Assembly (NCBI GenBank): GCA_023700825.1
Contig: JAMPYE010000002.1
Coordinates: 1-42,267, forward strand
Source of the DNA: Thermoanaerobaculia bacterium
GTDB lineage: Bacteria; Acidobacteriota; Thermoanaerobaculia; Gp7-AA8
DNA: 42,267 nucleotides
Reading direction: 5' to 3'
Below are positions 2,152 through 39,385 of this stretch, one piece after another. A program made the position numbers and the translations under genes. How positions within the stretch are numbered: the first letter of the stretch is position 1; each line of letters begins with the position of its first letter. The notes beneath the pieces were generated by a model. It ran no database searches. It saw nothing but the letters and a program-made list of their open reading frames with translations, and was not told the origin of the DNA.

Positions 2152-2298
2152 GGAAACCGGAATGAAGAATGTCGAATGAAGAATGAGAAATGAAGAAGTA
2201 GGCCGAGTCCGCAGTCCCTTCAGCACCGTCCGGTCGCGGTCTCGCTCCCGGCGGCTTCATTCTGCATTCCGCATTTGACATTCTTCATTTCGGGTTCC
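2152..2298. repeat. Heptamer-periodic inverted repeat, GAATGAA type (arms 2152-2198 and 2255-2298, 56-nt GC-rich spacer)
   Basis: The left arm is GGAAACCGGAATGAAGAATGTCGAATGAAGAATGAGAAATGAAGAAG. The reverse complement of the right arm is GGAACCCGAAATGAAGAATGTCAAATGCGGAATGCAGAATGAAG. About 36/44 positions are complementary by hand alignment. Confidence 0.85.
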
Positions 2299-2340
2299 GG
2301 GCGTCGACATTGCGGGGGATTCAAGCCGGATGTCGTAACG

Positions 2341-2979
2341 TCATCCGCGTCGCATCGCCTCGAAGTCCTCCGGCAGCCGCGACTCGACGACGAGTGGCTG
2401 GCCGGTCGCGGGGTGGATCATTTCGATTCTGCGGGCGTGGAGCATCGGGCGCCCGCGGTCGCGGTCGCCGTAGAGCCAGTCGCCGACGAGCGGGTGGCCG
2501 ATCGCCGAGAGGTGGACCCGGATCTGGTGCGTCCGGCCGGTCAGAAGGTGGATCTCGACGAGCGAATGCGCGTCGCCTGGCTCGAGAGGGATGATCCGGG
2601 TCAGGGCGCGCTTTCCCTCGTCACGCACGCCAAAGTTGATCGCGCCGATGCGTGCGAGCGGCGCGTCGACGAGCTGCGGCTCCGCGAGACGGCCGACGCA
2701 GAACGCGGCGTAGATCTTCCTGATCCGCTTCGTCTCGAACTGCCGTGTGAGGCGCACGTTCATCTTCGACGACTTCGAGAAGAAGATGACGCCGGTGGTG
2801 CCGCGGTCGAGCCGCTGGAGGAGACACGTCTCCTCGCCCTTCGCGCCGAGGTAGTCGCGCACCAGGTCGAGCAGGATCGGCTCCTCCTGGTCGTACCCCC
2901 TCTGCACGACGATCCCCGCGGGTTTGTCGATGAAGAGGAGGAACTCGTCCTCGTGGAGGATGGTGAGCGTGGGGGGCAT
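2341..2979 (-). CDS. RluA-family pseudouridine synthase
   Basis: Motifs FIDKPAG, LLQRLDRGTTGVIFFSK (catalytic Asp motif) and LLTGRTHQIRVHL. ATG at 2979. Confidence 0.9.
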   Translation of the reverse strand: MPPTLTILHEDEFLLFIDKPAGIVVQRGYDQEEPILLDLVRDYLGAKGEETCLLQRLDRGTTGVIFFSKSSKMNVRLTRQFETKRIRKIYAAFCVGRLAEPQLVDAPLARIGAINFGVRDEGKRALTRIIPLEPGDAHSLVEIHLLTGRTHQIRVHLSAIGHPLVGDWLYGDRDRGRPMLHARRIEMIHPATGQPLVVESRLPEDFEAMRRG

Positions 2980-2992
2980 GGGGGCGTATTTG

Positions 2993-3200
2993 GTTGTTAG
3001 TTGTTAGTTTTTAGTTGTTAGAAAGCAGAGATTGACGACGGAGATGGCGGTTAGGGCGTTAAGACGCCCTGAAGTTAGAAGTTAGAAGTTAGAACGATGA
3101 ATGTTGAATCCAGAATTGTCCTCTTTCTGGATTCAACATTCATCGTTCTAACTTCTAACTTCAGGAAGTGCGTGTCTAACAACTAACAACTAACAACTAC
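2993..3200. repeat. Nested 208-nt palindromic element: (GTTGTTA)n ... AGAAGTT-type 40-bp hairpin ... (TAACAAC)n
   Basis: 2993-3021 reads GTTGTTAGTTGTTAGTTTTTAGTTGTTAG and pairs with 3176-3200 (CTAACAACTAACAACTAACAACTAC). The inner arms 3069-3115 and 3125-3164 are perfectly complementary over 40 nt, except for one extra GAAGTTA unit on the left. Confidence 0.9.
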
Positions 3201-3206
3201 CCCTCC

Positions 3207-4394
3207 CTACTCGTACAACAGCCACTCCTGCCGCGTCGCCGCAAACGCCGCAGCCTCGGTGCGGCCTTCGCGGATCCAGGCGTCGAGATCGCCTTCCTCA
3301 TCGACGATGACTCGGTAGGCCGGGTCGCCGGTGAGCAGGTCGATCGCGGGGTGATCGCTTACGTATTCGTAGACCTCGCGGCGCCAGGCGAAGGCGTCGG
3401 GGTCCTGATCGCGCGCGACCTTGATGCACCACAGGCCCGTGCGGTAAGGCTCGAAGCTGTCGCGGTCGGTCACGTGAAGCTGCACGCCGCCGCAGACCTT
3501 GCCCGCGTGCTTCTGAAACGTCGGTTTGAAGTAGTGCGGACGGAAGGCGACGCCGGGAAGTTCGAGCGCGTTCAGGTCGGCGGCGAGCGTGAACGGGTCG
3601 AGCCAGGGCGCGCCCCAGATCTCGAACGGCCGCGTCGTGCCCCGCCCTTCGGAGAGGTTGGTCCCTTCGACGAGGCACATGCCGGGATAGACGGTCGCCG
3701 TGTCGGGGGTCGGCATGTTCGGCGACGGAAGCACCCAGGGCAGCCCCGTGTCGTTCCACCACATCGAGCGGGTCCACCCGCGCATCGGCACGACGTGGAG
3801 GTCGATCTCGAGCCGGTCGTGCTTCTCGAAGAAGAGCGCGAGCTCGACCGCGGTCATGCCGTGCCGCACCGGGAGCGGGTACATGCCGACGAAGCTCGCG
3901 TAGTCGGGGTCGAGAACGTTCCCTTCGACCGCGAGACCGCCGAGCGGGTTGGGCCGGTCGAGCACGACGACGCGGAGCTTCTTCCGCGCTGCGACGCGCA
4001 TGCAGAGTGCCATCGTGCAGACGAAGGTGTAGTAACGCGAGCCGACGTCCTGCAGATCGATGACGAGGGCGCTGAGCCCGTCGAGGTCGCTCTCCGCGGG
4101 CGAGAGCTCGTCGAAAGTCTTTCCGTAGAGCGACTTCACGTCGAGTCCGGTGAGAGGGTCGATTGCGTGCTCGACGTGCGCCATGTCCTGCGCCTCGCCC
4201 CAGATGCCGTGCTCGGGGCCGAACAGCGCGGCGAGCGTCCATCGATCGTCGTCGATCAGGAGCTCGGCGGCGTGACGGAAGTCGCTCGTGATCGCCGCAT
4301 GATTCGTCACCAGCCCGAGGCGCCGTCCGACGATCGGGGCCGGGTCTTCGAGCAGGGCTTCGAGCCCCGTGAGAACTCTCGTGTCGCGTTTCAC
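3207..4394 (-). CDS. namZ: DUF1343 family protein (NamZ/YbbC-like exo-beta-N-acetylmuramidase family)
   Basis: Full-length similarity pattern to DUF1343: LGLVTNHAAI, LFGPEHG, LVIDLQDVGSRYYTF, VLDRPNPLGG, PLPVRHGMT, NMPTPDTA, EGTNLSEGRGTTRPFE. GTG start at 4394 overlaps the stop of the downstream gene (GTGA). Confidence 0.85.
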   Translation of the reverse strand: MKRDTRVLTGLEALLEDPAPIVGRRLGLVTNHAAITSDFRHAAELLIDDDRWTLAALFGPEHGIWGEAQDMAHVEHAIDPLTGLDVKSLYGKTFDELSPAESDLDGLSALVIDLQDVGSRYYTFVCTMALCMRVAARKKLRVVVLDRPNPLGGLAVEGNVLDPDYASFVGMYPLPVRHGMTAVELALFFEKHDRLEIDLHVVPMRGWTRSMWWNDTGLPWVLPSPNMPTPDTATVYPGMCLVEGTNLSEGRGTTRPFEIWGAPWLDPFTLAADLNALELPGVAFRPHYFKPTFQKHAGKVCGGVQLHVTDRDSFEPYRTGLWCIKVARDQDPDAFAWRREVYEYVSDHPAIDLLTGDPAYRVIVDEEGDLDAWIREGRTEAAAFAATRQEWLLYE

Positions 4395-4903
4395 TTTGAT
4401 GCTCCGGGATGATCTTCGACGTGCGCTCCCTCGAGGAGAACGAGAGTGTGGCCGAGCAGGTGGACCACGGCCTCGAGATTCTCGATCGCTCCCTTCGGGC
4501 TTCCCGGGACGTTGACAATCAGCGCGTTGCCGCGCGTCGCGGCCTGCGCGCGGGAGAGGGTCGCGAGCGGGGTCTTCTCGAGCGAGCGCATCCGCATCAA
4601 CTCGCCGAAGCCGTCGATCCGCCGGTCGGCAACGCGCATCGTCGCCTCCGGCGTGACGTCCCGCGGCGCAATCCCGGTTCCTCCGGTCGTCACGACGAGC
4701 CGCCTCTCGCCGATGTCGATCGCCGAGGCGATCGCGTCGGAAATCTCCTGCACGGAGTCGGGGACGATCTCGACGCGATCGACCCGGAACCCGTGCCGTT
4801 CGAGGAACTCGCGTACCGCCGGGCCGGAGCCGTCGGTGCGCTCACCGCGGACGGCGGAATCGCTGCAGGTGATCACGCGGGCCTTGATGCCTGGTTTGTC
4901 CAT
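4391..4903 (-). CDS. mog: Molybdenum cofactor biosynthesis protein MogA/MoaB family (molybdopterin adenylyltransferase)
   Basis: 170 aa with motifs VVTTGGTGIAPRDVTPEAT and NVPGSPKGA. ATG at 4903. Confidence 0.85.
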   Translation of the reverse strand: MDKPGIKARVITCSDSAVRGERTDGSGPAVREFLERHGFRVDRVEIVPDSVQEISDAIASAIDIGERRLVVTTGGTGIAPRDVTPEATMRVADRRIDGFGELMRMRSLEKTPLATLSRAQAATRGNALIVNVPGSPKGAIENLEAVVHLLGHTLVLLEGAHVEDHPGASK

Positions 4904-4923
4904 GTGCGGTCAATTCTTGCACA

Positions 4924-4984
4924 GGCGAAAGGCGAGAGGCGAAAGGCGAGAGGCAGGCCATTGGCCTTTGGCCTGCCTTTCGCC
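4924..4984. repeat. (GGCGARA)x4 array fused to a 16-bp hairpin
   Basis: GGCGAAA GGCGAGA GGCGAAA GGCGAGA at 4924-4951. The stem 4945-4960 pairs with 4969-4984 with 1 mismatch. The right arm overlaps the aldo/keto reductase stop codon (4984-4986). Confidence 0.85.
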
Positions 4985-5859
4985 TACTTCGCCGTCGAGA
5001 ACGTAGCCGCGTCGATTCGCGCGACCTGCTCCTGAGACAGGTCGACGAGCATCGCGCGAGCGCTGTCGAGTGCGTGCTCGATCCGGCTCGCGCCGGGAAT
5101 CGGAACGACGGTCGCCCCTTTTGCGCGCGTCCAGGCGAGGGTCACGGCTGCGGGGGAGACGCCGAGCTCGCGGCCGATCGCGACGAGCGCAGGGATCGAG
5201 CCGATCCGCGCCGAGAGCCGCTTCCCGCCGAGCGGGCTGTACGCGAGAAACGTGATGCTTGCGCGCGCGCACTCTTCGATGACTCCCTCGTCCGCGGCTT
5301 CGCGGAACCAGGGACTGAATCGGTTCTGCACGGAGACGATCGGGACGATCGTCTGGGCCGAGCGAAGCTGGGCCACCGAGACGTTGCTCAGGCCGACGTG
5401 CTCGATCTTCCCTTCGTCGCGAAGGCGCGCCAGCTGCTCGACGCTCGTCTCGAAGACGATATCGGGATCGGGCGAGTGGAGCTGGTAGAGCGTGATCTTC
5501 TCCGTGCGAAGCGCGCGAAGGCTCGCCTCGCAGGCGCGGCGGAGCGATCGCGGCGAGCCGTCGCAATGCCAGGCGCCTTTCGGCCGCCGCAGCCCTCCCT
5601 TCGTGGCGACCACGATCCCTTCGCGGTCGTCGCGCTCCTCGAGCACCGACGCGATCAGGGCCTCGTTGTGGCCGATGTCGTCGTCGTCGATGCAGTAGAC
5701 GTTCGCTGTGTCGATCAGCGTCATCCCGGCGTCGATTGCCGCATGGAGCACCCGCCGTGCGACCGCTTCGTCGGGACGTCCCTGGATGGAGAGAGGCATC
5801 GCCCCGAAGCCGTGGATCGGGATCGCGATTCCGGTCGTGCTGAGCTCGGTGGTTCTCAC
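4984..5859 (-). CDS. Aldo/keto reductase family oxidoreductase
   Basis: Motifs GFGAMPLS, IDTANVY, ATKGG, YQLHSPD, GLSNV, VQNRFS, AYSPLG. GTG start at 5859. Confidence 0.9.
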   Translation of the reverse strand: MRTTELSTTGIAIPIHGFGAMPLSIQGRPDEAVARRVLHAAIDAGMTLIDTANVYCIDDDDIGHNEALIASVLEERDDREGIVVATKGGLRRPKGAWHCDGSPRSLRRACEASLRALRTEKITLYQLHSPDPDIVFETSVEQLARLRDEGKIEHVGLSNVSVAQLRSAQTIVPIVSVQNRFSPWFREAADEGVIEECARASITFLAYSPLGGKRLSARIGSIPALVAIGRELGVSPAAVTLAWTRAKGATVVPIPGASRIEHALDSARAMLVDLSQEQVARIDAATFSTAK

Positions 5860-5869
5860 GCTCGATTCC

Positions 5870-7273
5870 TCACTCGAACCCCGGCGGCACGCGCCGGTGG
5901 AACGCGGTGGTCGTCTGCAGTTGTTCGCCTAACGCGATGACGTCGCGGTCGGCGAGCGGCGCGCCGACGATCTGGATCGACGTCGGCAGGCCGTGCAGCC
6001 CGGTGCCGTTCGGCATCGCGATCGCGGGGGCGCCCGCGAGATTCATCCCGCCGATCACCGACGGCCCGCTCTTCACCCCGGGGTATGCGTCGCGGAACTT
6101 CACGTCGACCGGCGGCGCGACCGTGGCGCGCGACGGCGCAGCGAGCATCGTCACTTTCGTCGTGAGCAGCTCGACGAGCGCGGCGCGGATTTTCTTCCGG
6201 ACGCGCATCGCGCGAAGGTAGTCGACCGCGAGCGTCGCCGCTCCCTCGTAGCCGCCGATGTGGTCGGCCGCGCAACGGAGCTCCTTCGCTTTTCCGGAAA
6301 CGAGCAGGTCCTCGAACGCGCTCGCGCCCTCGGCGTCGACGATCGTCGAGACGACGGGGCCGTAGGGAAGGTCGGGCAGCTCGATCTCGACGAGCTCGTG
6401 ACCGAGCGCCTCGAGCGCCTTCATCGACGCTTCGAAGTTCGCGCGAACCTCGGCCTGCACTCCCTCGTACGACGCCTCGATCACTCCGATTTTTCGTTTC
6501 GCCCGCTGGGGCTTCGCGCCCCAGGCGAGCTTCGCGGGAAGCGAGCTCTCGTCCTTCGGGTCACGTCCGGCGATGACGCCCATGACGAGCGCGCAGTCTG
6601 CAGCAGATCGCGTCATCGGCCCGAGCTTGTCGAGCGTCCAGGCGAGCGCCATCGCGCCGTGGCGGCTGACGATGCCGTAGGTCGGCCGGAAGCCGGTGAC
6701 GCCGGAGAAGGCGCACGGGGTGATGATCGACCCCGAGGTCTCGCTGCCGATCGCGAACGGGACGAGCGCCGCGCTGACGGCCGCGCCCGGGCCGCTCGAC
6801 GAGCCGCCCGACCAGTGCCCGGTGTTCCACGGCGACCTCCCGGGTCCGGTGAACGAAGCGTCGGCCGTGTCGTAGCCGAACCCGCCGGCGAGCTCGACCA
6901 TCGCGAGCTTCGCGCAGAGCACCGCGCCGGCCTCGCCGAGGCGACGGACGACTTCGGCGTCGAAATCGAAGACCTGGCCCCGATACGGCTCGGCGCCCCA
7001 GGTTGTCGGGATGCCTCTCGTCGCCAGGAGGTCTTTTACGCCATACGGAATGCCGTGCAGCGGCCCGCGCCATTTTCCCTTCGCGATCTCCGCGTCGGCG
7101 CGGCGCGCTTCCGACTCGGCACGCTCGCGTGTGACCGTGACGACCGCGCCGAGGGCGGTGCCGTGCTTCTCGAGTCGATCGAGATAGAAGCGCGTCAGCT
7201 CGAGCGAAGAAACTTCGCGCTTCCTGAGCGCCGCGCCCAGCTCGGCGAGCGTCGCGTAGGGGCTCACGCTCAT
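5870..7273 (-). CDS. Amidase (amidase-signature family)
   Basis: Motifs GIPYGVKD, GGSSSGPGAAV and GSETSGSIITP (AS signature, Ser-cisSer-Lys). There is no signal peptide. ATG at 7273 overlaps the upstream stop (ATGA). Confidence 0.9.
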   Translation of the reverse strand: MSVSPYATLAELGAALRKREVSSLELTRFYLDRLEKHGTALGAVVTVTRERAESEARRADAEIAKGKWRGPLHGIPYGVKDLLATRGIPTTWGAEPYRGQVFDFDAEVVRRLGEAGAVLCAKLAMVELAGGFGYDTADASFTGPGRSPWNTGHWSGGSSSGPGAAVSAALVPFAIGSETSGSIITPCAFSGVTGFRPTYGIVSRHGAMALAWTLDKLGPMTRSAADCALVMGVIAGRDPKDESSLPAKLAWGAKPQRAKRKIGVIEASYEGVQAEVRANFEASMKALEALGHELVEIELPDLPYGPVVSTIVDAEGASAFEDLLVSGKAKELRCAADHIGGYEGAATLAVDYLRAMRVRKKIRAALVELLTTKVTMLAAPSRATVAPPVDVKFRDAYPGVKSGPSVIGGMNLAGAPAIAMPNGTGLHGLPTSIQIVGAPLADRDVIALGEQLQTTTAFHRRVPPGFE

Positions 7274-7602
7274 CGCGGGCCTCCTTCGGCGAAGAAGATG
7301 CTGTCTGGCTCGTCGGCGTTGGTGAGCGTGACCGAGTGCATCGACTTCATGTAGCCGGCGGTGTCGTCGAGGTCCTTCTCGATCGTCCGCGTGTCGTCGG
7401 CGGTGAGGTGTTTGCCGTACCGGGCGCGGAGCAGCGCCGTCTGCGCTTCCGACTGGCGCAACGCGTCGGAGCCGGGTGGAGGCGGGGCGGGCGCGGGAGT
7501 TGGGGCCGGTGCGGTCTGCGCGGTCGCGTCGGAGACGATCAGTGGGGCCGCCGCGATCGCTGTCGCGGCGAGTTTCGCGAAATCACGGCGTGTGCGTTTC
7601 AT
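7270..7602 (-). CDS. Small twin-arginine (Tat) signal protein, translationally coupled to the amidase
   Basis: Track ORF 7270..8061 trimmed to ATG 7602. The N-terminus MKRTRRDFAKLAATAIAAAPLIV is a canonical Tat motif (RRDF plus h-region). This is followed by a Pro/Ala linker and a ~60-aa C-terminal domain. The rest of the track ORF is an Arg-rich shadow frame running over repeats. Confidence 0.7.
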   Translation of the reverse strand: MKRTRRDFAKLAATAIAAAPLIVSDATAQTAPAPTPAPAPPPPGSDALRQSEAQTALLRARYGKHLTADDTRTIEKDLDDTAGYMKSMHSVTLTNADEPDSIFFAEGGPR

Positions 7603-7629
7603 GGTGGGGAGATTGTGGCGCACGGGGGA

Positions 7630-7659
7630 GGCGAAAGGCGAGAGGCGAGGGGGCGAGGG
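7630..7659. repeat. (GGCGARR) heptamer array
   Basis: GGCGAAA GGCGAGA GGCGAGG G GGCGAGG, immediately upstream (minus sense) of the Tat-protein start at 7602. Confidence 0.75.
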
Positions 7660-7666
7660 TTGCCTA

Positions 7667-7787
7667 GTGTGGCGCAGGCACTCCTGCCTGCGCGTCGCCC
7701 CGCACAGCGGGGCGACCGTATTCTGTGGGATGAGCCGAAAGCGGCGGCGCTCCGCGCCGCGCGCAGACAGGAGTGTCTGCGCCACAC
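7667..7787. repeat. 121-nt structured inverted-repeat element (28-nt arms, 26/28 match) enclosing two GC hairpins
   Basis: The arms are 7667-7694 GTGTGGCGCAGGCACTCCTGCCTGCGCG and 7760-7787 CGCGCAGACAGGAGTGTCTGCGCCACAC. The internal hairpins are GTCGCCCCGC-aca-GCGGGGCGAC (7694-7716) and GCGGCGC-tcc-GCGCCGC. Confidence 0.8.
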
Positions 7788-7811
7788 GCGGTGGCGCTTT
7801 CGCACTCCAAA

Positions 7812-8489
7812 TCAGAACTTCGAGATCACCTTCCCTGGCGGCGTGTTCTCGAGGAACATATTCAGCGCGGCGAGGACGACCTTCTCGTGATGTGCGCGGT
7901 CGCCGGCGGCGCCGGCGAGGTGGCCGACGGCGCAGCCTTCCCACGTCATTCCGCGCGGCGGGCGCGTCGACTCGCTCGCGGCCGGGTTCGCGCTGATCAC
8001 GATCGTCGGCACGCCGCGCGACTCGATCTCGCGCGCGAGGTTCGAGATCGACCGGTGGCACGTCTCCGGGCAGCCCGCCATCAGGATTACCAGCTTCGTC
8101 TTCGACTTCTCGACGTTGTCCGCGATCTCGGGGAAGGTCTTCTCGTAGAGCTCCTTGAGCCGCGTCGTGAAGCCGTACGAGTAGTGCTTGTCGTTGACCG
8201 CGCCGATGACCCCTTTCGCCGCGAGCTCCTGGAGCGTCGCGAGCGGGAAGACGATGTTCGGGTCGCCGTCGGCCTCGGTGTGGTCGTAGTGATGGTGCGC
8301 GATCTTGAAATCGGCGACGTTCGCGTCACCCGCGATCACGCGGTAATCGATGTCGCCCGGATCCTCGGTCGCAAACGCTGCCTGGCCGGGCGCGTAGACG
8401 CCGGTCGCGCAGACGAGAGTCACCGTCGCGGAGGCGAGGTCTTTGTCGTACGGAGTGAAAGGGATGCAGCGTCGCGAGATATTGAGCAT
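7812..8489 (-). CDS. Glycine/sarcosine/betaine reductase selenoprotein B (GrdB) family protein, short Cys-containing form
   Basis: Motifs DYRVIAGD, HHHYDHTEADGDPNIVFPL, LQELAAKGVIG, and a redox-type pair in LMAGCPETCHRS followed by GVPTIVI. No in-frame TGA. Start is uncertain: ATG 8489 (MLNISRR) or ATG 8549 (MTQTGR). The track start at 8645 would overlap the upstream gene. Confidence 0.6.
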   Translation of the reverse strand: MLNISRRCIPFTPYDKDLASATVTLVCATGVYAPGQAAFATEDPGDIDYRVIAGDANVADFKIAHHHYDHTEADGDPNIVFPLATLQELAAKGVIGAVNDKHYSYGFTTRLKELYEKTFPEIADNVEKSKTKLVILMAGCPETCHRSISNLAREIESRGVPTIVISANPAASESTRPPRGMTWEGCAVGHLAGAAGDRAHHEKVVLAALNMFLENTPPGKVISKF

Positions 8490-8583
8490 GGGGTTCGCTT
8501 TCGCAGAGGGATTTCGGGGCGGGCTCGTCGCCCGCCCCGTTTGGGTCATGAGATCCGGCGCGTGGACGCCGGAAGAGGCGATG

Positions 8584-9096
8584 TCAGGCGAGCTCGCGCA
8601 GCGTTTCGATGATCTGCGCGTTTTCAGGCTGCTCACCGATGTCATGGACGTCGATGTAGGCGACCTTGCCCTGTTTGTCGATGACGAAGATGGCGCGTTC
8701 GTTGATGCCCTTGTCGTCCATCCAGACCCCGTAGAGCTTCGCTACGTGCCCCTTCGGGTGGAAGTCGGCGAGCAAGGGATACGAGTTGATCCCGCCGAGT
8801 GATTTTGCGAATGCGACGTGACTGGGGATGCTGTCGACCGAAATGCCGAAGACCTCGGCATCATACCGCTCGAAGTCGGCGTGTTCCGCCTCGTACGAGG
8901 GCATTTGGACCGTTCAGACAGGGGTCCAGTCGAGAGGATAGAAAGCGATGACCACGTTCTTCTTGCCGTGGAAGTCGCTGAGTTTGACCTTCTCGCCGCC
9001 ACGATGACCGGGAAGCTCGAAGTCGGGAGCCTTGTCGCCGACTTTGAGCGTCGCGGTCTTCGACGCGACGGAGGTCCTGCCTACCTTGACACTCAT
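8584..9096 (-). CDS. AhpE/Bcp-type peroxiredoxin with in-frame TGA (8914-8916) at the peroxidatic Cys position; probable selenocysteine peroxiredoxin
   Basis: Track ORFs 8914..9153 and 8584..8904 are in the same frame and are separated only by TGA plus 3 codons. The joined product is [30 protein letters not shown]...[43 protein letters not shown]...[10 protein letters not shown]...[15 protein letters not shown] 9096 is preceded by AAGGAGGA. Confidence 0.75.
8843..8903 (-). promoter_or_regulatory. Candidate bacterial SECIS region downstream of UGA 8914-8916
   Basis: On the mRNA, 13 nt after the UGA there is CCUC-GUAC-GAGG, extendable with a bulged C to G-C and U-G pairs, which places a GU-containing loop 18-21 nt after the UGA. 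A second hairpin, AUGCCGA-GGUCU-UCGGCAU (8843-8861), has a GGUC loop like E. coli fdhF but lies about 52 nt after the UGA, further than usual. Neither was scored with a SECIS model. Confidence 0.3.
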
Positions 9097-9199
9097 GGGA
9101 GGTCCTCCTTGGTTGAGATGACTGCAAGCAATGAGTGCGATGTCCACGTCCATCGCGGGAGCAGCAGCTCGCCAGCATGGATTCTATCGCACGAGAGCA

Positions 9200-9234
9200 G
9201 GCGATAGGCGAGGGGCGAGAGGCGAGGAGCAGGC
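9200..9234. repeat. (GGCGARR)x4 heptamer array ending in GCAGGCC
   Basis: GGCGATA GGCGAGG GGCGAGA GGCGAGG AGCAGGC. It has the same architecture and the same strand as 4924-4958. Confidence 0.8.
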
Positions 9235-9264
9235 CGAGTAGTGTCGGCGGAGGGGAAGAGGCAA

Positions 9265-9366
9265 TTCTCAATTCCTCATTCCTCATTCGACATTCTTCAT
9301 TTCGGTTTCCGCTCCTTCACCAGAACCGAAATTTCGAATGTCGAATGAGGAATGAAGAATGAAGAA
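9265..9366. repeat. Heptamer-periodic inverted repeat, GAATGAA type (arms 9265-9310 and 9323-9366, 12-nt spacer)
   Basis: The reverse complement of the left arm is GGAAACCGAAATGAAGAATGTCGAATGAGGAATGAGGAATTGAGAA. It matches 2152-2187 at 34/36 positions. The right arm is GAACCGAAATTTCGAATGTCGAATGAGGAATGAAGAATGAAGAA. Confidence 0.9.
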
Positions 9367-9466
9367 AAGGGAAACGGCATGCTTCCAGCCAGTTCGGATC
9401 GAGGTCTTCTCTTGGCCGGATTTTCGGCCGGTACACTCCGCGGAGTAAAATCACCCCATCGGCACA

Positions 9467-10366
9467 ATGGCGATCCCTGGCAACGGCGGTGACCGGCTCA
9501 TCCTGGGCATGGCTGGCGGCGGAGACTTCCGGGTCATCGCGGCGCAGACCGCGGAGTCGCTCGAGCTGGCCCGGCTGCGGTGCGACCTGTCGCCGGTCGC
9601 GGCCGCGGCGCTGGGCCGCGCCCTTACGAGCGCGGTCCTGCTCGCGCGCCTCCTCGACAAGCAGGTTCCGGAACAGCACGTATCGCTCCGTCTCGAGGGA
9701 GGCGGCCCGATCGGCGGCGTGATCGCGGAAGCGACGATCGACGGGCGGATCCGCGGCTGTGTCGGGAACCCGCAGTACGAGGACACCGCGTGCGACGTCG
9801 GCCTCGCGGTCGGCTCCGGCGGCAACCTCACCGTGATCCGCAAGTCGCCGCCTCTGATGAAGCCCTACACCTCGCAGGTCCGGCTCGTCTCGGGCGAGAT
9901 CGCCAAGGACGTCGCGCACTATCTCGCGACGAGCGAGCAGATCCCGACCGCGGTCCTGCTCGGCGTGCTGAATCGCCCCACGGGCGTGGCCTCCTGCGGC
10001 GGAATCGTGATCCAGGCCTTTCCGCACACGACCCCGGCGGAGATCGAGGCGATGGAGAAGGCGATCCTCGACGCGCCGCCGCTTTCGTCCCTTCTCGCCG
10101 AGCTGCCGATCCACGACGCCGTGGCCCGCGTCCTCGGCCCCGTCGGCTACAAGCAGCTCGATCCGTCGTTCGACATCCCGATCTCCTACCACTGTACCTG
10201 CTCGCGGGAGAAGGCGCTTCGGATGTATCGTTACTTTCCGCCGCAGGAGCTCGGCGAAATGATTCGCGAGGCGAGCGACACCGAGGCCGTCTGCCACTTC
10301 TGCGGCGCGAAGTACGTGTTCACGGCCGACGACCTGCTGGGCCTGGACGTTGGCGAAGGGAACTGA
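9467..10366 (+). CDS. hslO: Hsp33 redox-regulated chaperone
   Basis: Full-length Hsp33 pattern, including the C-terminal zinc/redox switch CTC...CHFC (YHCTCSREK ... AVCHFCGAKY). ATG at 9467. Confidence 0.9.
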   Translation: MAIPGNGGDRLILGMAGGGDFRVIAAQTAESLELARLRCDLSPVAAAALGRALTSAVLLARLLDKQVPEQHVSLRLEGGGPIGGVIAEATIDGRIRGCVGNPQYEDTACDVGLAVGSGGNLTVIRKSPPLMKPYTSQVRLVSGEIAKDVAHYLATSEQIPTAVLLGVLNRPTGVASCGGIVIQAFPHTTPAEIEAMEKAILDAPPLSSLLAELPIHDAVARVLGPVGYKQLDPSFDIPISYHCTCSREKALRMYRYFPPQELGEMIREASDTEAVCHFCGAKYVFTADDLLGLDVGEGN

Positions 10367-10422
10367 CTCTTGAGAGGCGCGGCCGGATTCTCAATTCGGA
10401 ACTCGCGTGTAACACCCGACCT

Positions 10423-11481
10423 ATGAAAAGCGTAATCACCGGTTCCGGCATCGCACTTCCGCCTCACGTCGTCACCAACGATCAGCTGTCGCGGATCATG
10501 GACACCTCGGATGAATGGATCCGCACGCGGAGCGGCATCGAGCAGCGCCACTTCGCGGTGGCGGGCCAGGGCTCGGCGGAGCTCGGCTCGATGGCCGGCG
10601 AGGCCGCGATTCGCGACGCGGGACTGAAACCGGAAGACATCGACGTCGTCGTCTTCGCGACGATGACTCCCGACCATGTCCTTCCGGGCAACGGGCCGTT
10701 GCTGCAGAAACGGATCGGGCTTCGCCAGGTGCCGACGTTCGACCTCCGCCAGCAGTGCAGCGGCTTCCTTTACGGTCTCGACCTGGCCGACTCGCTCCTC
10801 CGGAGCGGCAAGTTCGAGCGGGTGCTGCTGGTGGGAGCCGAGACGCACAGCGGCTTCATGCCATGGGATCAGGGGTGGAAGGTCGTGCTGGGGCTGAGCG
10901 ACGAGGAGCCGAGCGACGAGGAGAAGGCCTGGAACACGCTGTCGCGCGACCGGACGGTGCTCTTCGGCGACGCCGCGGGGGCGGTCGTGGTCGAGAAGCG
11001 CGAGAACGGCGCGGCGGGTCTGCTTCGCACTCGCCTCTACACCGACGGCGGAGGCGCCGAAGCGCTCACGATGCACGGTTCGAGCTTCAAGCAGCGCCCG
11101 TTCGTGACGAAGGAGCAGATTGCGGCCGGAGAGACGATCCCCGTGATGAACGGCCGCGAGGTGTTCAAGACCGCCGTGACCCTCATGCCCCAGGCGGTGC
11201 GCGACGTCTGCGCCGACGAAGGGCTGGCGGTGGCGGATCTCGATCTCGTCCTGATTCACCAGGCGAACCTCCGGATCATCGAGGGAGTGCAGAAGCAACT
11301 CGGGCTCCCCTCCGAAAAGGTGCCGCACAACATCGAGCGCTACGGAAACACCACCGCCGCGACGCTGCCCCTGCTCTTCCACGAGTGCAAACAGAACGGA
11401 CTCGCAGGTCCCGGGAAACTGATCGCGTTCACGGCGCTCGGGTCGGGGCTGCACTGGGGAGCGGCGTTGTACCGGATGTGA
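10423..11481 (+). CDS. fabH: 3-oxoacyl-ACP synthase III (FabH-like ketosynthase)
   Basis: Track ORF 9580..11481 trimmed to ATG 10423 (MKSVITGSGIALP). Cys-His-Asn triad contexts are QQCSGFLYGL, LIHQAN and YGNTTAAT. The upstream part of the track ORF is a shadow frame over hslO. Confidence 0.85.
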   Translation: MKSVITGSGIALPPHVVTNDQLSRIMDTSDEWIRTRSGIEQRHFAVAGQGSAELGSMAGEAAIRDAGLKPEDIDVVVFATMTPDHVLPGNGPLLQKRIGLRQVPTFDLRQQCSGFLYGLDLADSLLRSGKFERVLLVGAETHSGFMPWDQGWKVVLGLSDEEPSDEEKAWNTLSRDRTVLFGDAAGAVVVEKRENGAAGLLRTRLYTDGGGAEALTMHGSSFKQRPFVTKEQIAAGETIPVMNGREVFKTAVTLMPQAVRDVCADEGLAVADLDLVLIHQANLRIIEGVQKQLGLPSEKVPHNIERYGNTTAATLPLLFHECKQNGLAGPGKLIAFTALGSGLHWGAALYRM

Positions 11482-11494
11482 TGGTTGGGCGGGC

Positions 11495-11624
11495 GGAAAC
11501 ACAATGAATGCAGAACGCAGAATGCAGAACGATGAATGTAGAAATCGGAACCGAAGGCAGCCACTGCCACGGGTTCCCTTTCTACATTCATCGTTCAGCA
11601 TTCAGCATTCATTGTTTTCTTCCG
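11495..11624. repeat. Heptamer-periodic inverted repeat, GCAGAAY/GATGAAT type, with central GGAACC...GGTTCC and GGCAG-cca-CTGCC hairpin
   Basis: The left arm is ACAATGAATGCAGAACGCAGAATGCAGAACGATGAATGTAGAAA (11501-11544). The reverse complement of the right arm 11579-11615 is ACAATGAATGCTGAATGCTGAACGATGAATGTAGAAA. The arms differ by exactly one heptamer plus A/T changes. Confidence 0.9.
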
Positions 11625-11667
11625 TTTCGTTGATCCCAAACTGCCCCTCAGATAGACTCCCGCCCCT

Positions 11668-12735
11668 ATGACGGACAAGCTTTCCTACCGCGACGCCGGG
11701 GTCGACATCGACGCGCAGGACGAGGCGCTTCGCGAGGTTCGGCGCATCGTCAAGAAGACCTACACGCCCGGCGTGATGTCGGACATCGGCTCGTTCGGCG
11801 GCCTCTTCCGCGGCTCGTTCCCGGAGATGCAGGCGCCGATCCTCGTTTCGTCGGCCGACGGCGTCGGGACGAAGCTCGCGGTCGCCAAGGCGATGAAGGT
11901 GCACGACACGGTCGGCTACGACCTGGTCTGTCATTGCGTCAACGACATCCTCGTTCAGGGTGCGCGCCCCCTCTTCTTCCTCGACTACTTCGCCTCCGGC
12001 AAGCTCAACCCCGGCGTGATGACCGACGTCGTGAAGGGGATGGCGAACGGCTGCCGCGAGAACGACTTCGCGCTGATCGGCGGCGAGACGGCAGAGATGC
12101 CGGGCATGTACTCCGAAGACGAGTACGACGTCGCCGGTTTCATCGTCGGTGTCGTCGACGAGAAGCATCTCATCACCGGGAAGAACGTCCGCCAGGGCGA
12201 CCTCGTCATCGCGCTCCCCTCGGTTGGGCTCCACACGAACGGCTACTCGCTCGCGCGCAAGGTACTGATCGACAAGTGCGGGCACGACTACCAGACGATC
12301 GTCCCCGAGATCGGCGGCAAAGTGGGTGAAGTCCTGCTCGCGCCGCACGTCTCGTATCTCAAGCCGCTGCTGCCGCTGGTCCAGGAGTCGCTGATTCACG
12401 GGATGGCGCACATCACGGGCGGCGGCCTAACCGACAACGTGCCGCGCGTCCTTCCCGCCGACTGCGACGTGCAGATCCGCCTCGGCTCGTGGCCAGTGCT
12501 CCCGATCTTCCGGTACATCTTCGAGAAGGGTGGCATCGAGGTCGAGGAGATGCTTCGCGTCTTCAACATGGGCGTCGGGATGGTGCTGATCGTCGCTCCG
12601 GAGGCGGTCGAGCCGGTGACGAAGCGACTGCTGTCGTACGGCCAGAAGTACTTCTTCATCGGAAACGTCGTCGCGGGGAGCGGCAAGGTGGTCTACGACC
12701 ATCCCCCTGCCGGCTTCGCGAGCTGGATCCGCTGA
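11668..12735 (+). CDS. purM: Phosphoribosylformylglycinamidine cyclo-ligase (AIR synthetase)
   Basis: Motifs YRDAGVDID, GGLF, SSADGVGTKL, DYF, GGETAEMPG, HITGGG. Confidence 0.95.
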   Translation: MTDKLSYRDAGVDIDAQDEALREVRRIVKKTYTPGVMSDIGSFGGLFRGSFPEMQAPILVSSADGVGTKLAVAKAMKVHDTVGYDLVCHCVNDILVQGARPLFFLDYFASGKLNPGVMTDVVKGMANGCRENDFALIGGETAEMPGMYSEDEYDVAGFIVGVVDEKHLITGKNVRQGDLVIALPSVGLHTNGYSLARKVLIDKCGHDYQTIVPEIGGKVGEVLLAPHVSYLKPLLPLVQESLIHGMAHITGGGLTDNVPRVLPADCDVQIRLGSWPVLPIFRYIFEKGGIEVEEMLRVFNMGVGMVLIVAPEAVEPVTKRLLSYGQKYFFIGNVVAGSGKVVYDHPPAGFASWIR

Positions 12736-13334
12736 TGAAGCGCCTTGCCGTGCTGCTCTCCGGGCGCGGGTCGAACTTCCTTGCGATCCACGAGGCGTGC
12801 GCGACGAAGGAGCTCCCCGCCGAGGTCGTCTGCGTCGTCTCGAACAAGCCGGACGCCCGCGGAATCGAGAAGGCCAGGGAGCTCGGCGTTCCCGCGTTCG
12901 GGATCGACCACAAGCAGTTCGCGAATCGCGCGGCGTACGAGGCCGAGGTGATCGCGACGCTCGACCGGCACGCGCCCGACTTCGTGATCCTCGCCGGCTA
13001 CATGCGGCTCCTGTCGCCCGACTTCGTGGCGCGCTTCCGCCATCGCATCACCAACATCCATCCGTCGCTGCTGCCGTCGTTTCCCGGCGTCGACGCGCAG
13101 CGCCAGGCCGTCGAGTACGGAGTGAAGGTGTCGGGCTGCACGGTGCACCTCGTCGACGAGTCGCTCGACGGCGGGCCGATCCTCGTGCAGCGCTCCGTCC
13201 CGGTCCTCGACGGCGACACCCCCGAAGAGCTCGCCACCCGCATCCTCGGCCAGGAGCACGGCGCCTACATCGAGGCGCTAAGGAAGCTATGCGGCGGCTA
13301 TCGGGTGGACGGAAGACGGGTGATCTTCGACTGA
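12735..13334 (+). CDS. purN: Phosphoribosylglycinamide formyltransferase
   Basis: Track ORF 12489..13334 trimmed to ATG 12735 (MKRLAVLLSGRGSN), which overlaps the purM TGA by 1 nt. Motifs NIHPSLLPSFPG and GCTVHLVDE. Confidence 0.95.
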   Translation: MKRLAVLLSGRGSNFLAIHEACATKELPAEVVCVVSNKPDARGIEKARELGVPAFGIDHKQFANRAAYEAEVIATLDRHAPDFVILAGYMRLLSPDFVARFRHRITNIHPSLLPSFPGVDAQRQAVEYGVKVSGCTVHLVDESLDGGPILVQRSVPVLDGDTPEELATRILGQEHGAYIEALRKLCGGYRVDGRRVIFD

Positions 13335-13468
13335 GGTCGAAGCAACTACTGAGGCGCGGTGGGGGTCAGGCCTCGAAACTGTACTTTAGCAGCTCTTATG
13401 ATACTTGTGATCTGACCCTTGGCCACAGGACTCACCTAGACACCTTCCGAGTTCGCAACTGTGTATTG

Positions 13469-14593
13469 TTAGTTCGGCAACAGCCGCTTCCACCACGGCA
13501 ACTCGGCGACGTCCGTGTCGGCGACAGCGGGAATCGACGCCAGCGTTCTTCCATCGAGCGAAACGACGACGGTTCCGATCTTCTCGCCTTTGCGGATCGG
13601 CGCCCTGGCCTTGTCGCTGACGACGGTAGTCATCACCCGACGCGCCTCGCTTTTCTCGAGGAAGAGCCTCGGCGCGGTCGCCGCCGTGACTGGCACGGTC
13701 GAGACCTCGCCGTTGCGGACGACGACCGCGTCGCGCATCCGCTGCCCCTTCTTCACGGGATGGACCCAGCGCCAGCCATCGAACCCGCGGCGGAGGAGCG
13801 CTGCCGCGGCATCGAAGCTGCCGTCACGCACCTCGCTGCCCATGACGACTGCAATCAGGTCGAGGTCGCCGCGCCTGGCCGAGGCCGTAACGCAGAAGCC
13901 GGAGCCGCGGTGGTAACCGGTCTTGAGGCCGTTCGCCCCCGGGAAGTTGCCGAGCAGCTTGTTTGTCGTGAGCAGCTTCTCGAAGGTACCGTTCCGAAAC
14001 TCCATCTCCGTCGTGGCCGCAAACTCGCGGATGAGCGGAAACTTCATCAGCTTGACCGCAAGCTTCGCAGCGTCGTCCGCGCTCATCACGTCGTCAGGAC
14101 GCTTCGTCGACGGGAGGCCGTTGGGCGAGGTGAAGCGACTCTCGCTCATGCCGAGCGCCGCGGCGCGCCGGTTCATCTGCGCGACGAACGCCTCCTCGCT
14201 TCCGGCGACGTGCTCGGCGAGTGCCATCGCAGCGTCGTTGGCGGAGTGGATGAGAGTCGCGGCGACGAGCTGCCGAACCGTGAAGGCGCCTCCCCGCGCG
14301 AGAAAGACCTGGGAGCCTCCCTCGTCCTCGGCTCTCTTCGAAATCTCGACCGGAGAGTCGAGCGAGAGCGTGCCGCTCTCGACCCTCTCCATCACGAGTA
14401 GCAGCGTCATCATCTTCGTCATCGAGGCGACGGCGCGCGACTCGTGCGCGTTGTCCTCGAACAGCACGCGCCCGGTGGTGCCCTCGACGAGGATCGCCGA
14501 CACGTAGGGACGCGGCTCCGCGGCCGGGGCCGCGAGAGGGAGGAGGACGAAGAGCAGAACGGCGAGTACGAGGAATCCGGGGCGCAGGTTCAT
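13469..14593 (-). CDS. D-alanyl-D-alanine carboxypeptidase (peptidase S11, PBP5/6-like)
   Basis: Signal peptide. SxxK motif (ASMTK), SxN motif (HSAND) and KTG motif (LKTGYH). C-terminal beta-sandwich-type domain. Confidence 0.9.
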   Translation of the reverse strand: MNLRPGFLVLAVLLFVLLPLAAPAAEPRPYVSAILVEGTTGRVLFEDNAHESRAVASMTKMMTLLLVMERVESGTLSLDSPVEISKRAEDEGGSQVFLARGGAFTVRQLVAATLIHSANDAAMALAEHVAGSEEAFVAQMNRRAAALGMSESRFTSPNGLPSTKRPDDVMSADDAAKLAVKLMKFPLIREFAATTEMEFRNGTFEKLLTTNKLLGNFPGANGLKTGYHRGSGFCVTASARRGDLDLIAVVMGSEVRDGSFDAAAALLRRGFDGWRWVHPVKKGQRMRDAVVVRNGEVSTVPVTAATAPRLFLEKSEARRVMTTVVSDKARAPIRKGEKIGTVVVSLDGRTLASIPAVADTDVAELPWWKRLLPN

Positions 14594-14682
14594 CAGTCAA
14601 CAGGATACCGCGATGGCGCCGCTGCGCGTCCCGGGGTTCAGTCCGACGCCAAGAGTGGTGCTGGCCTGGCGGCGTCGCAAGA

Positions 14683-14716
14683 ATCCAGAGGCGCCCCTTA
14701 TGGAGCGCCTCTGGAT
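14683..14716 (-). terminator. Stem-loop downstream of the 14726..15496 gene (12-bp perfect stem, 10-nt loop)
   Basis: ATCCAGAGGCGC-cccttatgga-GCGCCTCTGGAT lies 10 nt past the stop codon. On the minus strand it is followed by TCTTG. There is no long U tract. Confidence 0.5.
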
Positions 14717-14725
14717 CGTGCGGGA

Positions 14726-15496
14726 TTACTCAGGCGTGAGCACCGCGACACTGTGCGTGAGGTTGTTCGTCACTGACGCGAACGCCCAATACTGCCGAGG
14801 AGTGGATGGCTCCAGACGGATGCGAACGTATCCTGCGCCTGCAAGCTGCGGGAACTGCTCCACGAGGTTCGTGATCGTCGCGAAGCTGGGTACGAGCGGG
14901 TACGTCGAGTGCGTGTCTCCGCCACGCAGATCGAGCGTGAGCTGCGCCAAAGCGTCGTCCCCATCCTCGGGCAGGATGGTCACGTTCAACGAGAGTGTGT
15001 CGCTCGGCTGGTACTCGTAAGCCCGCAGTGTGACGCGGAACAGCTCGTCGACGGGCACGTGAAGCAACTCCGTCGTGCCCGTGAGCCACTCATCCTCTCG
15101 GACGACGGGGATCGTCGTGCCGAAGTTCTCGGCCTGCCGCGACACATCCCAGGCGCGGAGGAGGAAGTGGATGTCGCCCGCGCGGGCCTCCTCGACGACG
15201 AAGTACGCGCCGGGGATGCTCCCCGATCCCGTTCCTTCGTACCGTGCCAGCGCGCCCGGTGCGAGCGTCTTGTCACAGAGTTCGAACGGGCACTCGGGCG
15301 AGCCCGGCGCGACGATCACGGGCTGTGTCCCGCTGTTCGACATGTACAGCTCCGACATCCAGAGGCTCCCGCCGTACCCGGCGCCGTGCCAGAGCACGGG
15401 GACGAGGACGCGCTGCGTCGTGGGCGGCACCTGGGCATTGGCCGCGACGCTTCCGCCCATGAAGACAGCAAGTGTCAGGCACAACCAGAATCGCAT
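14726..15496 (-). CDS. Secreted hypothetical protein
   Basis: Signal peptide MRFWLCLTLAVFMGGSVAANAQ. ATG 15496 lies 10 nt after AAGGAG. The track start at 15502 is a GTG only 4 nt after the RBS. No domain recognised. Confidence 0.6.
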   Translation of the reverse strand: MRFWLCLTLAVFMGGSVAANAQVPPTTQRVLVPVLWHGAGYGGSLWMSELYMSNSGTQPVIVAPGSPECPFELCDKTLAPGALARYEGTGSGSIPGAYFVVEEARAGDIHFLLRAWDVSRQAENFGTTIPVVREDEWLTGTTELLHVPVDELFRVTLRAYEYQPSDTLSLNVTILPEDGDDALAQLTLDLRGGDTHSTYPLVPSFATITNLVEQFPQLAGAGYVRIRLEPSTPRQYWAFASVTNNLTHSVAVLTPE

Positions 15497-15731
15497 TCGC
15501 ACGATACTCCTTTCGTTACGGTGTCACGGGTCGGCTGCGGCACGAGTCGAGGAAGTACAGCAGCGAGCCGTTCGGCGACGTCGTGGTGTCGCGGACGAGG
15601 AGGTTGTCCGATGGAGTCTACGTGGAGGTTGGTGGCGAAGAGAAGTCGCATTAACTTCTGCGCGGAACGAGTTCGGTGCGCCTAACGACCCAGCTTCAAA
15701 ACGGGAGCGCCAGCTGGCCAACGTCAATCGT

Positions 15732-15796
15732 CTAACAACTAACAACTAACAACTAACAACTAACAACTAACAACTAACAACTAACAACCAACAACT
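15732..15796. repeat. Tandem heptamer array (CTAACAA)x9
   Basis: Eight perfect units and one variant unit (CCAACAA). The array ends 8 nt from the enoyl-CoA hydratase stop (15804). The same unit occurs at 2993-3021 and 3176-3200. Confidence 0.95.
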
Positions 15797-28679: not shown

Positions 28680-28809
28680 GCGGGTAAGGAACCCGCCGCT
28701 CAAAATCGAAATTCGGACTCGATCGATGCGGACGGTTTCAATTCGGTGAGCATTGCGGAGGCAGGAGCTTGCGCCGAGCAGCGAGCCGGCGGCGGCCACG
28801 GGGAGACTC

Positions 28810-39291: not shown

Positions 39292-39329
39292 TCCGCGTCC
39301 GATGCCAACTTCAGAATTCGCGCAGACGC

Positions 39330-39361: not shown

Positions 39362-39385
39362 ATTGCCGCAAGAAATCTACGAGCG

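Follow-up and report, generated by a model that had tools for sequence, protein, structure and literature searches.

Bacterial repeats of 7-nt units have been on record since 1990, e.g., the short tandemly repeated repetitive (STRR) units CCCCAGT, TTGGTCA and CAACAGT of Calothrix PCC 7601, and no function is known for them. Here we describe a dispersed family of 7-nt arrays and hairpins in a DNA stretch of 42,267 nt from a Thermoanaerobaculia bacterium (contig JAMPYE010000002.1, positions 1 to 42,267; the window hereafter, meaning the whole stretch analysed). A sequence-only reading of the window had found the family impossible to assign to a known repeat class. It is, in fact, a family of intergenic heptanucleotide simple-sequence repeats (SSRs), i.e., a known kind of repeat in a new phylum (Acidobacteriota), as its 7-nt copies are arranged head-to-tail up to 9.3 times, are located in non-coding DNA and differ between relatives in copy number by 7-nt steps. 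As summarised in PMC4679880 and PMC4692102, Mrazek 2007 found heptanucleotide repeats to be the most abundant class of long SSRs in most bacterial genomes, with slippage as the explanation. The window arrays resemble those SSRs and the cyanobacterial STRR in their intergenic tandem 7-nt units, their 7-nt insertions and deletions and the slippage explanation; however, the repeats in these summaries are direct arrays, and the summaries do not describe a stop-to-start hairpin, a polarity rule or conservation above the synonymous level.

Closer in anatomy are the heptamers GGGAATC of Xanthomonas and GGGGAYT of Nostoc (Rehm et al. 2015, PMC4692102), which are heterogeneous 7-nt units with some fixed positions and a strongly intergenic location, and where inverted pairs that could fold into stem-loops make up 70-75 of about 185 sites. 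Aligned open reading frames (ORFs) are preferred there and divergent ORFs under-represented, the adjacent genes being ordinary metabolic ones; the purine-rich strand is the coding one within 50 bp of, or overlapping, a stop codon, and the non-coding one just upstream of ORFs. The same spacers are filled in two species, with varying length and sequence, and transcripts start or stop at the repeats that form G-quadruplexes more often than at control repeats, although no function was found (PMC4692102). The window family shares with them the inverted pairs, the purine array past the stop, the pyrimidine array before the start, and spacers of relatives that are occupied with 7-nt changes. Unlike in that system, where the G-quadruplex is treated as defining (PMC4692102), the window units GAATGAA, GAAGTTA, GTTGTTA and GGCGARA have no G3 tract and could not be classed as quadruplex repeats, and most units of the lineage (GAATGAA, GAAGTTA, GTTGTTA, GAGTTAA) are AT-rich. 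It also differs in having several unrelated unit families per genome, composite hairpins and arms of up to ~100 nt (in the related locus L083). The TAACTGA repeats common to marine Beggiatoaceae, cyanobacteria and Bacteroidetes are found mostly just upstream of starts (MacGregor 2015, PMC4679880). They are similar in that one heptamer is present across distant phyla, intergenic, in fixed orientation, with 7-nt insertions and deletions and with contigs that end in repeats; they differ in being 169 direct sets and a single inverted one, before starts rather than past stops, with no hairpin (PMC4679880).

Tandem Repeats Finder gave 15 rows of period-7 arrays, all within 2160-15796, and zero such rows at 15797-42267, where the later spacers have background lag-7 values, so the earlier impression that the arrays are confined to the first 16 kb was right. 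Read on the plus strand, GAATGAA/GAATGTC is located at 2160-2197 (complements at 2258-2289, 9271-9301 and 9343-9366), GTTGTTA at 2993-3021, CTAACAA at 3176-3199 and 15732-15796 (9.3 copies, score 123), GAAGTTA at 3071-3094 and 3146-3162, GCAGAAY/GATGAAT at 11506-11543 (where the repeat row itself spans 11506-11531) and 11585-11611, and GGCGARA at 4923-4954, 7628-7649 and 9199-9226, with a further period-7 row at 4956-4974; the units are contiguous, with no intervening spacers. The lag-7 self-match equals 0.51-0.52 in the spacers 2980-3206 and 4904-4983, compared to ~0.25-0.30 at other lags and in later spacers. Inverted repeats are found at 3078-3115/3125-3162 (38 nt, 100% complementary), 2151-2195/2255-2299 (45 nt, 82%), 9265-9307/9324-9366 (43 nt, 86%) and 11513-11553/11570-11610 (41 nt, 83%), while the 38-nt hairpin is additionally enclosed by outer GTTGTTA/CTAACAA arms at 2998-3022/3175-3199 (96% complementary). 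The stems of the window hairpins have 30-47 pairs and are AT-rich; RNA folding of five hairpin loci gave z values of -4.0 to -13.9, with no shuffle equally stable, and a 22-mer of the GAATG module has four matches at up to three mismatches vs 0.00 expected.

These results, i.e., recurring modules, period-7 rows, the lag-7 signal and the hairpin z-scores, bear out the view in the sequence-only reading of a related, modular and non-random family. Its particular matches could be reproduced as well: 34 of 36 nt between 2152-2187 and the reverse complement of 9275-9310, the 18-mer AGAACGATGAATGTNGAA shared by 3091 and 11526, four GGCGARA units followed by GCAGGCC at 4924 and 9200, and paired arms that differ by one heptamer at two loci (near 3069-3164 and 11501-11615). 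Other statements need amendment. The GC background was given as ~69%, while the window measures 67.1%, and the description of the arrays as AT-rich holds for most units but not for the GGCGARA arrays (4923, 7628, 9199), which are GC-rich. A supposed degenerate relic at 28688-28747 shows no period-7 signal, is located inside a subtilase ORF of 1094 aa (25515-28799) and was rejected as coding sequence.

Every array of the window sits in a spacer between genes supported by Pfam. On the sense strand, a purine-type array starts 0-42 nt past the stop at five loci (RluA, NamZ, aldo-keto reductase (AKR), FabH and enoyl-CoA hydratase), and pyrimidine-type arrays are located 14-26 nt before the starts of RluA, MoCF and a 110-aa ORF. 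In the RluA-to-DUF4783 spacer, where both flanking genes are on the minus strand, a GAATGNN hairpin at 2151-2299 (arms 2151-2195 and 2255-2299, z -6.3) has a GC-rich loop of 59 nt and its purine arm first, 42 nt past the RluA stop at 2341. The NamZ-to-RluA spacer contains a composite hairpin. Its C-less purine-type outer arm is (GTTGTTA)3 on the sense (minus) strand at 3176-3199, which starts 8-10 nt past the NamZ stop at 3207; its inner part at 3068-3165, built of GAAGTTA/GAACGAT/GAATGTT/GAATCCA units, has perfect 38-nt arms (z -13.9) and a single extra GAAGTTA unit in one arm; and its G-less pyrimidine-type outer arm, 96% complementary to 3175-3199, is (TAACAAC)4 on the sense (minus) strand at 2993-3021, 14 nt upstream of the RluA ATG at 2979. 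At 4923-4985, (GGCGARA)4 followed by GGCAGGCC and a GGCC hairpin (z -4.0) takes up the spacer between AKR and MoCF, reaching from the AKR stop (4984) as far as 20 nt ahead of the MoCF ATG (4903).

The GC-rich array at 7628-7659, GGCGARA in plus-strand reading, is pyrimidine-type on the sense (minus) strand, has no partner arm and precedes by 26 nt the ATG (7602) with which the 110-aa ORF ahead of the amidase gene starts. The sole divergent spacer of the window with arrays, between the peroxiredoxin and Hsp33 genes (9199-9366), contains (GGCGAKA)4 followed by GCAGGCC at 9199-9234, and a GAATGNN hairpin at 9265-9366 (arms 9265-9307 and 9324-9366, z -6.9) whose pyrimidine arm comes first, a rare arrangement, and which is 100 nt upstream of the Hsp33 ATG. 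A hairpin of NNNNGAA heptads (GCAGAAY, GATGAAT) at 11498-11618 (z -11.4), with arms one unit apart in length, starts ~14-17 nt past the stop of the FabH-like gene (11481) and ends ~50 nt before the PurM ATG (11668). Finally, (GTTGTTA)9 on the sense (minus) strand at 15732-15796 starts 8 nt past the enoyl-CoA hydratase stop (15804); it lacks a partner arm and by itself shows no structure (fold z +0.8).

The homologs of NamZ place the window in Acidobacteriota, class Thermoanaerobaculia. Syntenic loci of relatives (80-96% NamZ identity; denoted by L numbers below) were taken from NCBI, ENA, JGI and Logan assemblies. The NamZ-to-RluA spacer is occupied by a heptad hairpin in every relative compared, while the units turn over: the hairpin is of GAAGTTA type in the window and L001 (where 9805-9895 is the ortholog of 3068-3165), of GAATG type in L082, and a (GAGTTAC)3(GAGTTAA)n hairpin with ~100-nt arms in L083. 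Past the NamZ stop, the window has 3 GTTGTTA copies, L174 has at least 4, and L087 and L088 have 6, which confirms the unit slippage that had been proposed from the sequence; the array is also present in L175 and L082. The AKR-to-MoCF element of the window is common to L082, L174 and L176, while L087 has a single CTCTCGCCT unit where the window has four, and in L001 this spacer is only 13 nt long. The RluA-to-DUF4783 hairpin has orthologs in L082 and L083 and is absent from L001, which in turn has a hairpin at the same position below FabH (133-262); the (GGCGAKA)n-GCAGGCC module order of 9199-9234 recurs in L112 and L143. The comparison of orthologous spacers thus shows both presence/absence and whole-unit changes: complete 7-nt units are added to and lost from arrays that stay where they are, and the same spacers remain occupied across relatives during this turnover.

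Some observations on these loci stand apart. In L087, L088, L175 and L083, the AKR-to-MoCF spacer is taken up by a GC-rich element bounded by terminal inverted repeats (TGTGGAGTGCGAAAGCG...CGCTTTCGCACTCCACA). The ~100-nt arms of L083 belong to a GAGTTAA/AACTCTT hairpin at 4151-4380, and very long arrays occur in other Thermoanaerobaculia (CTCTCGC with 30.7 and CATTCGT with 14.7 copies; L003 7597-7811 and 9361-9426, L002 9361-9463). Short-read contigs from relatives break off within the GTTGTTA array past the NamZ stop (L174 1757-1784, L087 4249-4294, L088 1751-1774 and the end of L176), and others begin inside a TTTCGCC array.

Since such repeats disturb assembly, and relatives' short-read contigs end inside them, it could be asked whether the arrays are an assembly or vector artefact. 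The same arrays were found at the same gene junctions in the independent assemblies of all four sources, with intact flanking genes, and therefore they are not artefacts; we consider the chance of this negligible.

Outside the window, period 7 accounts for 46 of the 73 arrays with at least three copies in 240 kb of Thermoanaerobaculia-type loci (0.19 per kb), compared to 21 of 150 arrays in 1.10 Mb from ~70 genomes of other phyla (0.019 per kb), and 22 of 33 period-7 arrays of the lineage have an inverted partner within 350 nt. Inverted heptad pairs of other units are sporadically present in Nitrospirota, Caldilineaceae, Anaerolineales, Desulfobacterales and Verrucomicrobia loci. The exact 22-mer of the GAATG module (GAAGAATGTCGAATGANGAATG) is found in 85 metagenome stretches with a GC content of 0.40 to 0.72; four contigs with GC 0.62-0.65 (L163, L126, L120, L140) encode proteins that cluster with proteins of Thermoanaerobaculia metagenome-assembled genomes (MAGs), and one low-GC contig belongs to the Delta 1 deltaproteobacterial symbiont of Olavius algarvensis.

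Low-GC contigs (0.44-0.51) have, between their GAATGNN arms, an asymmetric core that is conserved (AATTAAGGAATTCTGTC ... GGAGCGAAGCGAC) and occurs in either orientation (L103, L107, L127, L128, L130, L142, L147, L153, L160 and L162), which suggests that this form is a distinct composite element, possibly mobile, of a deltaproteobacterial lineage. The simple (GTTGTTA)3 sequence is present in 39 viral contigs (L177-L215), giant-virus MAGs included, and was treated as a generic SSR.

The metagenome stretches gave 73 unique elements, in which partner arms were detected by folding and genes were called by our own crude procedure. Fifty are hairpins with the purine arm first and 3 with the pyrimidine arm first, whereas 20 have no detectable partner; only 4 of the 73 are inside a called ORF. 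Where both flanks could be called, 31 elements are between co-directional, 8 between convergent and 3 between divergent genes. In co-directional spacers the hairpin starts at a median of 11 nt past the upstream stop (16 of 23 within 20 nt), while the distance from hairpin to next start ranges from 2 to ~1200 nt. Polarity was examined on 89 period-7 arrays near gene ends: near stops, 43 of 53 arrays are purine-type on the sense strand and 10 are pyrimidine-type, and near starts, 27 of 36 are pyrimidine-type and 9 purine-type (Fisher p = 2e-7, where paired arms are not independent observations and the gene calls are again crude). Array polarity with respect to stops and starts departs strongly from randomness.

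The arms are also conserved far above synonymous sites, and pairing is restored by two-sided changes. Between the window and L001, ~10% of the arm positions in the NamZ-to-RluA hairpin differ (our count on the alignment), and two of the differences are matched by a complementary change in the other arm, while identity at the four-fold degenerate sites of five flanking genes is only 48-56%. For the RluA-to-DUF4783 hairpin, the ends of the pyrimidine arm are 85-93% identical among the window, L082 and L083, compared to 67-70% at four-fold sites. When six GAAGT/GAACG-type hairpins are aligned, both sides have changed in 11 of the 37 predicted pairs, while the GAA of each heptad is invariant at 7-nt phase. 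Since arm identity exceeds that of four-fold sites, and pairs change on both sides around a fixed GAA phase, the arms are therefore under constraint. Two further statistics added little: mirroring of the last two bases of GAATGNN between the arms of metagenome hairpins (18 of 65 vs 18% expected) was too weak to use, and a heptad logo over 154 further units of these hairpins was noisy, with only a modest GAA enrichment. Stop codons in all frames were rejected as a reason for the C-less arm, since ~60% of the purine-type units carry a stop, which by our calculation is about chance for heptads without C.

A neutral origin would be another account, in which slippage favours 7-nt units that fill non-coding space, template switching makes the palindromes, and no function is involved. 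Long SSRs show a bias towards heptamers generally (PMC4679880 and PMC4692102, citing Mrazek 2007); copy number differs among close relatives and assemblies break in the arrays, the element can be wholly absent (as in the 13-nt AKR-to-MoCF spacer of L001), the arrays abut stop and start codons as though bounded by coding sequence alone, and there is no strand-specific G-U signal. All of this would fit such a by-product, but slippage alone does not predict the polarity or the 50:3 bias of arm order, and arms 85-93% identical against 48-70% at four-fold sites, with two-sided compensatory changes, speak against it. Neutral slippage alone is hard to reconcile with the constraint and placement data, and we regard it as unlikely.

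With regard to other repeat classes, repetitive extragenic palindromic (REP) sequences and bacterial interspersed mosaic elements (BIMEs) have been proposed to stabilise mRNA, terminate transcription or bind proteins, and are tied to REP-associated tyrosine transposases (RAYTs). The window family is similar to them as a set of dispersed extragenic palindromes at gene 3' ends and between co-transcribed genes. REPs are described in PMC3733652 as single units of 20-40 nt, GC-rich, with a conserved GTAG or CGTC tag, whereas the stems here have 30-100 nt of 7-nt units, are AT-rich and show no such tag at their ends. CRISPR was rejected because the units are contiguous and there are no spacers, and a MITE (miniature inverted-repeat transposable element) was rejected, as far as this can be checked by eye, because only the arms are alike, the loops and lengths differ, and the inspected ends have no target-site duplication. 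On all three classes the sequence-only reading had come to the same view, and its statement that the window has no transposase or RAYT gene agrees with Pfam scans of about 40 ORFs, in which no transposase, RAYT or Y1 domain was detected.

It could still be supposed that the hairpins are non-autonomous mobile elements, MITE-like or foldback-like, whose heptad arrays are terminal inverted repeats and whose transposase is encoded elsewhere. This would explain why the same module order is seen at unrelated loci and genomes (e.g., GGAAACCGAAATGAAGAATGTCGAATGA and (GGCGARA)n-GGCAGGCC-(AAAGGCC)n), why presence varies between relatives, why low-GC copies have the inner core GGAGCGAAGCGAC in common and why the distribution spans phyla. 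However, copies with similar arms have unrelated loops and lengths and lack target-site duplications at the inspected ends, no transposase or Y1 domain is encoded in the window, the 22-mer has zero matches in 2.9 million viral contigs, and elements grow in place from single units, as with the one CTCTCGCCT unit of L087 and the four of the window. A mobile origin of the family therefore seems improbable to us.

Known RNA structures did not account for the hairpins either. Rfam 15 at gathering thresholds gave 0 matches in the window and one tRNA only among 20 related loci, while the E-value mode returned only sub-threshold look-alikes of miRNA precursors, i.e., generic long hairpins; a search of the window for tRNA and tmRNA found none. 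Searching the literature with the repeat sequences themselves brought up primers alone. Canonical terminators show no excess in the terminator scan (11 found vs 11.2 expected, and 10 vs 8.1), and the scan did not report the heptad hairpins, whose AT-rich stems lack a U-tract, so they were rejected as intrinsic terminators. They do share with intrinsic terminators the hairpin directly past the stop, and their A/G-rich 5' side and U/C-rich 3' side recall bidirectional terminators; they differ in their AT-rich heptad stems of 30-47 pairs, in place of a short GC-rich stem with a U-tract.

From their position, we infer that the arrays are built by slippage and kept as gene-end or intercistronic hairpins, which would act as a terminator, an insulator or an RNA-stability structure; we would give this reading a probability of roughly 0.5. 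Replication slippage, with its known 7-nt bias, would supply the arrays, and the complementarity of the arms would be kept by correction between arms or by selection. Most arrays are organised as inverted pairs, in which the purine-type, C-poor array begins within ~10-40 nt past the stop of one gene and its pyrimidine-type, G-poor complement ends shortly before the next start. A single long hairpin can therefore form over such a spacer. Once transcribed, such a hairpin may serve as a gene-end or intercistronic structure in a genome without an excess of U-tract terminators, where the candidate roles, alone or combined, are a direction-independent terminator or insulator that needs no U-tract, a processing site, and a barrier against 3' exonucleases. 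If the purine arm comes first, the RNA has a G-less, U/C-rich 3' arm, which would give a weak RNA:DNA hybrid in either direction of transcription and fits a bidirectional terminator that lacks a U-tract. A terminator or insulator role fits the position of the hairpins, at the median distance past the stop given above.

Several points weigh against a gene-end function. The heptad hairpins, with AT-rich stems and no U-tract, are unlike proven intrinsic terminators, and some of them are in divergent spacers that need no terminator (9265-9366 in the window and two in L001). The depletion from divergent spacers in the metagenome set is weak and not significant (3 of 42 elements vs 26 of 173, or 15%, of background spacers), and the gene calls behind it are crude. 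Sense and antisense folds of 14 hairpins with known gene orientation are equally stable, with G-U counts of 39 vs 38, and selection at the RNA level is therefore inseparable from selection at the DNA level. Finally, the arm sequence is conserved, with GAA fixed in each heptad, which is more than a purely structural role requires.

The last point would be explained by a trans-acting factor that reads the 7-nt register, i.e., an oligomeric or cooperative single-strand binder that recognises one short motif (mostly GAA) per heptad of the purine arm. Such a factor would compete with hairpin formation and so set the termination, read-through, translation or stability of many operons. Precedents are HutP, which binds UAG-N4 repeats near a terminator, and TRAP, which binds triplet repeats (GAG/UAG); cold-shock domains cover about 7 nt and can be antiterminators. 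The likeness to HutP and TRAP sites concerns the mode of action only, i.e., a short motif at fixed spacing (7 nt for HutP) 5' of an intergenic hairpin near the end of the upstream gene, and it differs in that those are single-operon sites with a dedicated protein, while here there are many loci and many unit sequences. For the TAACTGA heptamers, S1, Csp or CsrA proteins have been proposed (PMC4679880). The six hairpins in which GAA is invariant per phase while the four bases between change, the conservation of the arms far above synonymous sites, and the GAATGNN heptads common to Thermoanaerobaculia and a deltaproteobacterial symbiont would all agree with a factor of this kind. On the other hand, the units within the lineage are diverse (GAATGAA, GAAGTTA, GTTGTTA, GAGTTAA, GGCGARA, AGGTCAA), and one sequence-specific protein cannot read all of them; by our estimate, chance alone would put a GAA or GAG into about half of all purine-rich heptads, the logo over the further 154 units is weak, and no candidate protein was identified. 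We hold such a factor to be possible, though doubtful.

A bolder form of this proposal is that the GAA-phased hairpins are cis-sites of a post-transcriptional system, class-wide and possibly cross-phylum, in which a protein with a footprint of ~7 nt acts on the purine arm next to the stop; we think this rather unlikely. The protein might be of the cold-shock-domain/S1 type or a HutP/TRAP-like oligomer, would load cooperatively, and would open or close the stop-to-start hairpin, thus setting termination, read-through or translational coupling of housekeeping operons. If true, the 7-nt unit of bacterial heptamer repeats would in general reflect a protein footprint, and not the quantum of polymerase slippage.

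The gene map of the window, obtained by Pfam scans covering about 40 ORFs, is as follows. On the minus strand are the DUF4783 protein (1588-2022), the RluA-type pseudouridine synthase (2341-2979), NamZ (3207-4394), the MoCF/MogA-like protein (4391-4903), AKR (4984-5859), the amidase (5870-7273, preceded by the 110-aa ORF at 7270-7602), a GRDB-like protein (7812-8645) and a peroxiredoxin (8584-9099). Hsp33 (9467-10366), the FabH-like protein (about 10420-11481), PurM (11668-12735) and PurN (ending at 13334) follow on the plus strand, and a D-Ala-D-Ala carboxypeptidase (13469-14593), a secreted protein (14726-15502) and the enoyl-CoA hydratase (15804-16694) are again on the minus strand. The array-bearing part is a housekeeping block, syntenic with L001 as far as the latter reaches (~1.6-11.5 kb), and the array-free part (16000-42267) encodes glycosyltransferases, a subtilase, an ABC-2 transporter, DUF3011 and an AraC-type regulator; it might be that arrays track the residence time of DNA in the lineage.

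The AhpC/TSA peroxiredoxin gene (8584-9099, minus strand) has an in-frame TGA (~8911-8913) at the expected position of the catalytic cysteine, and the same TGA is present in L001 (an 83%-related genome; 2842-3354), where the gene is called as two ORFs. This is probably a selenocysteine peroxiredoxin; the gene adjoins that of the GRDB-like protein, which belongs to the selenoprotein B family. Two other inverted repeats were noted in the window. At 7667-7694/7760-7787, the two arms of a GC-rich 28-nt inverted repeat, 93% complementary and separated by 65 nt, flank a 10-bp GC hairpin (7694-7716); this has the look of a small MITE-like element and bears no relation to the heptad arrays. At 39313-39378, between convergent genes (stops at 39291 and 39386), a GC-rich palindrome (GAAGAGGGGCACGGCATGCCGTGCCCCTCTTC) is rich in purines on its 5' side and in pyrimidines on its 3' side and lacks a T-run, i.e., the polarity of the heptad hairpins without the 7-nt periodicity.

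In practical terms, short-read assemblies of Thermoanaerobaculia break at these arrays, and so at gene junctions that can be predicted, since it is inside the arrays that relatives' short contigs end. With respect to heptamer repeats in general, the Xanthomonas heptamers are the best-studied case and are explained through G-quadruplexes. The same anatomy is seen here with units unable to form quadruplexes, and therefore the shared cause must lie elsewhere, e.g., in the hairpin itself, in the polarity or in a 7-nt footprint. What is added to that case is that the arms are much better conserved than synonymous sites, that compensatory changes surround a GAA phase which does not vary, and that GAATGNN is reused in a distant phylum. 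A case without G-quadruplexes, with evidence of selection and a polarity rule, makes the question of why the unit has seven bases experimentally approachable.

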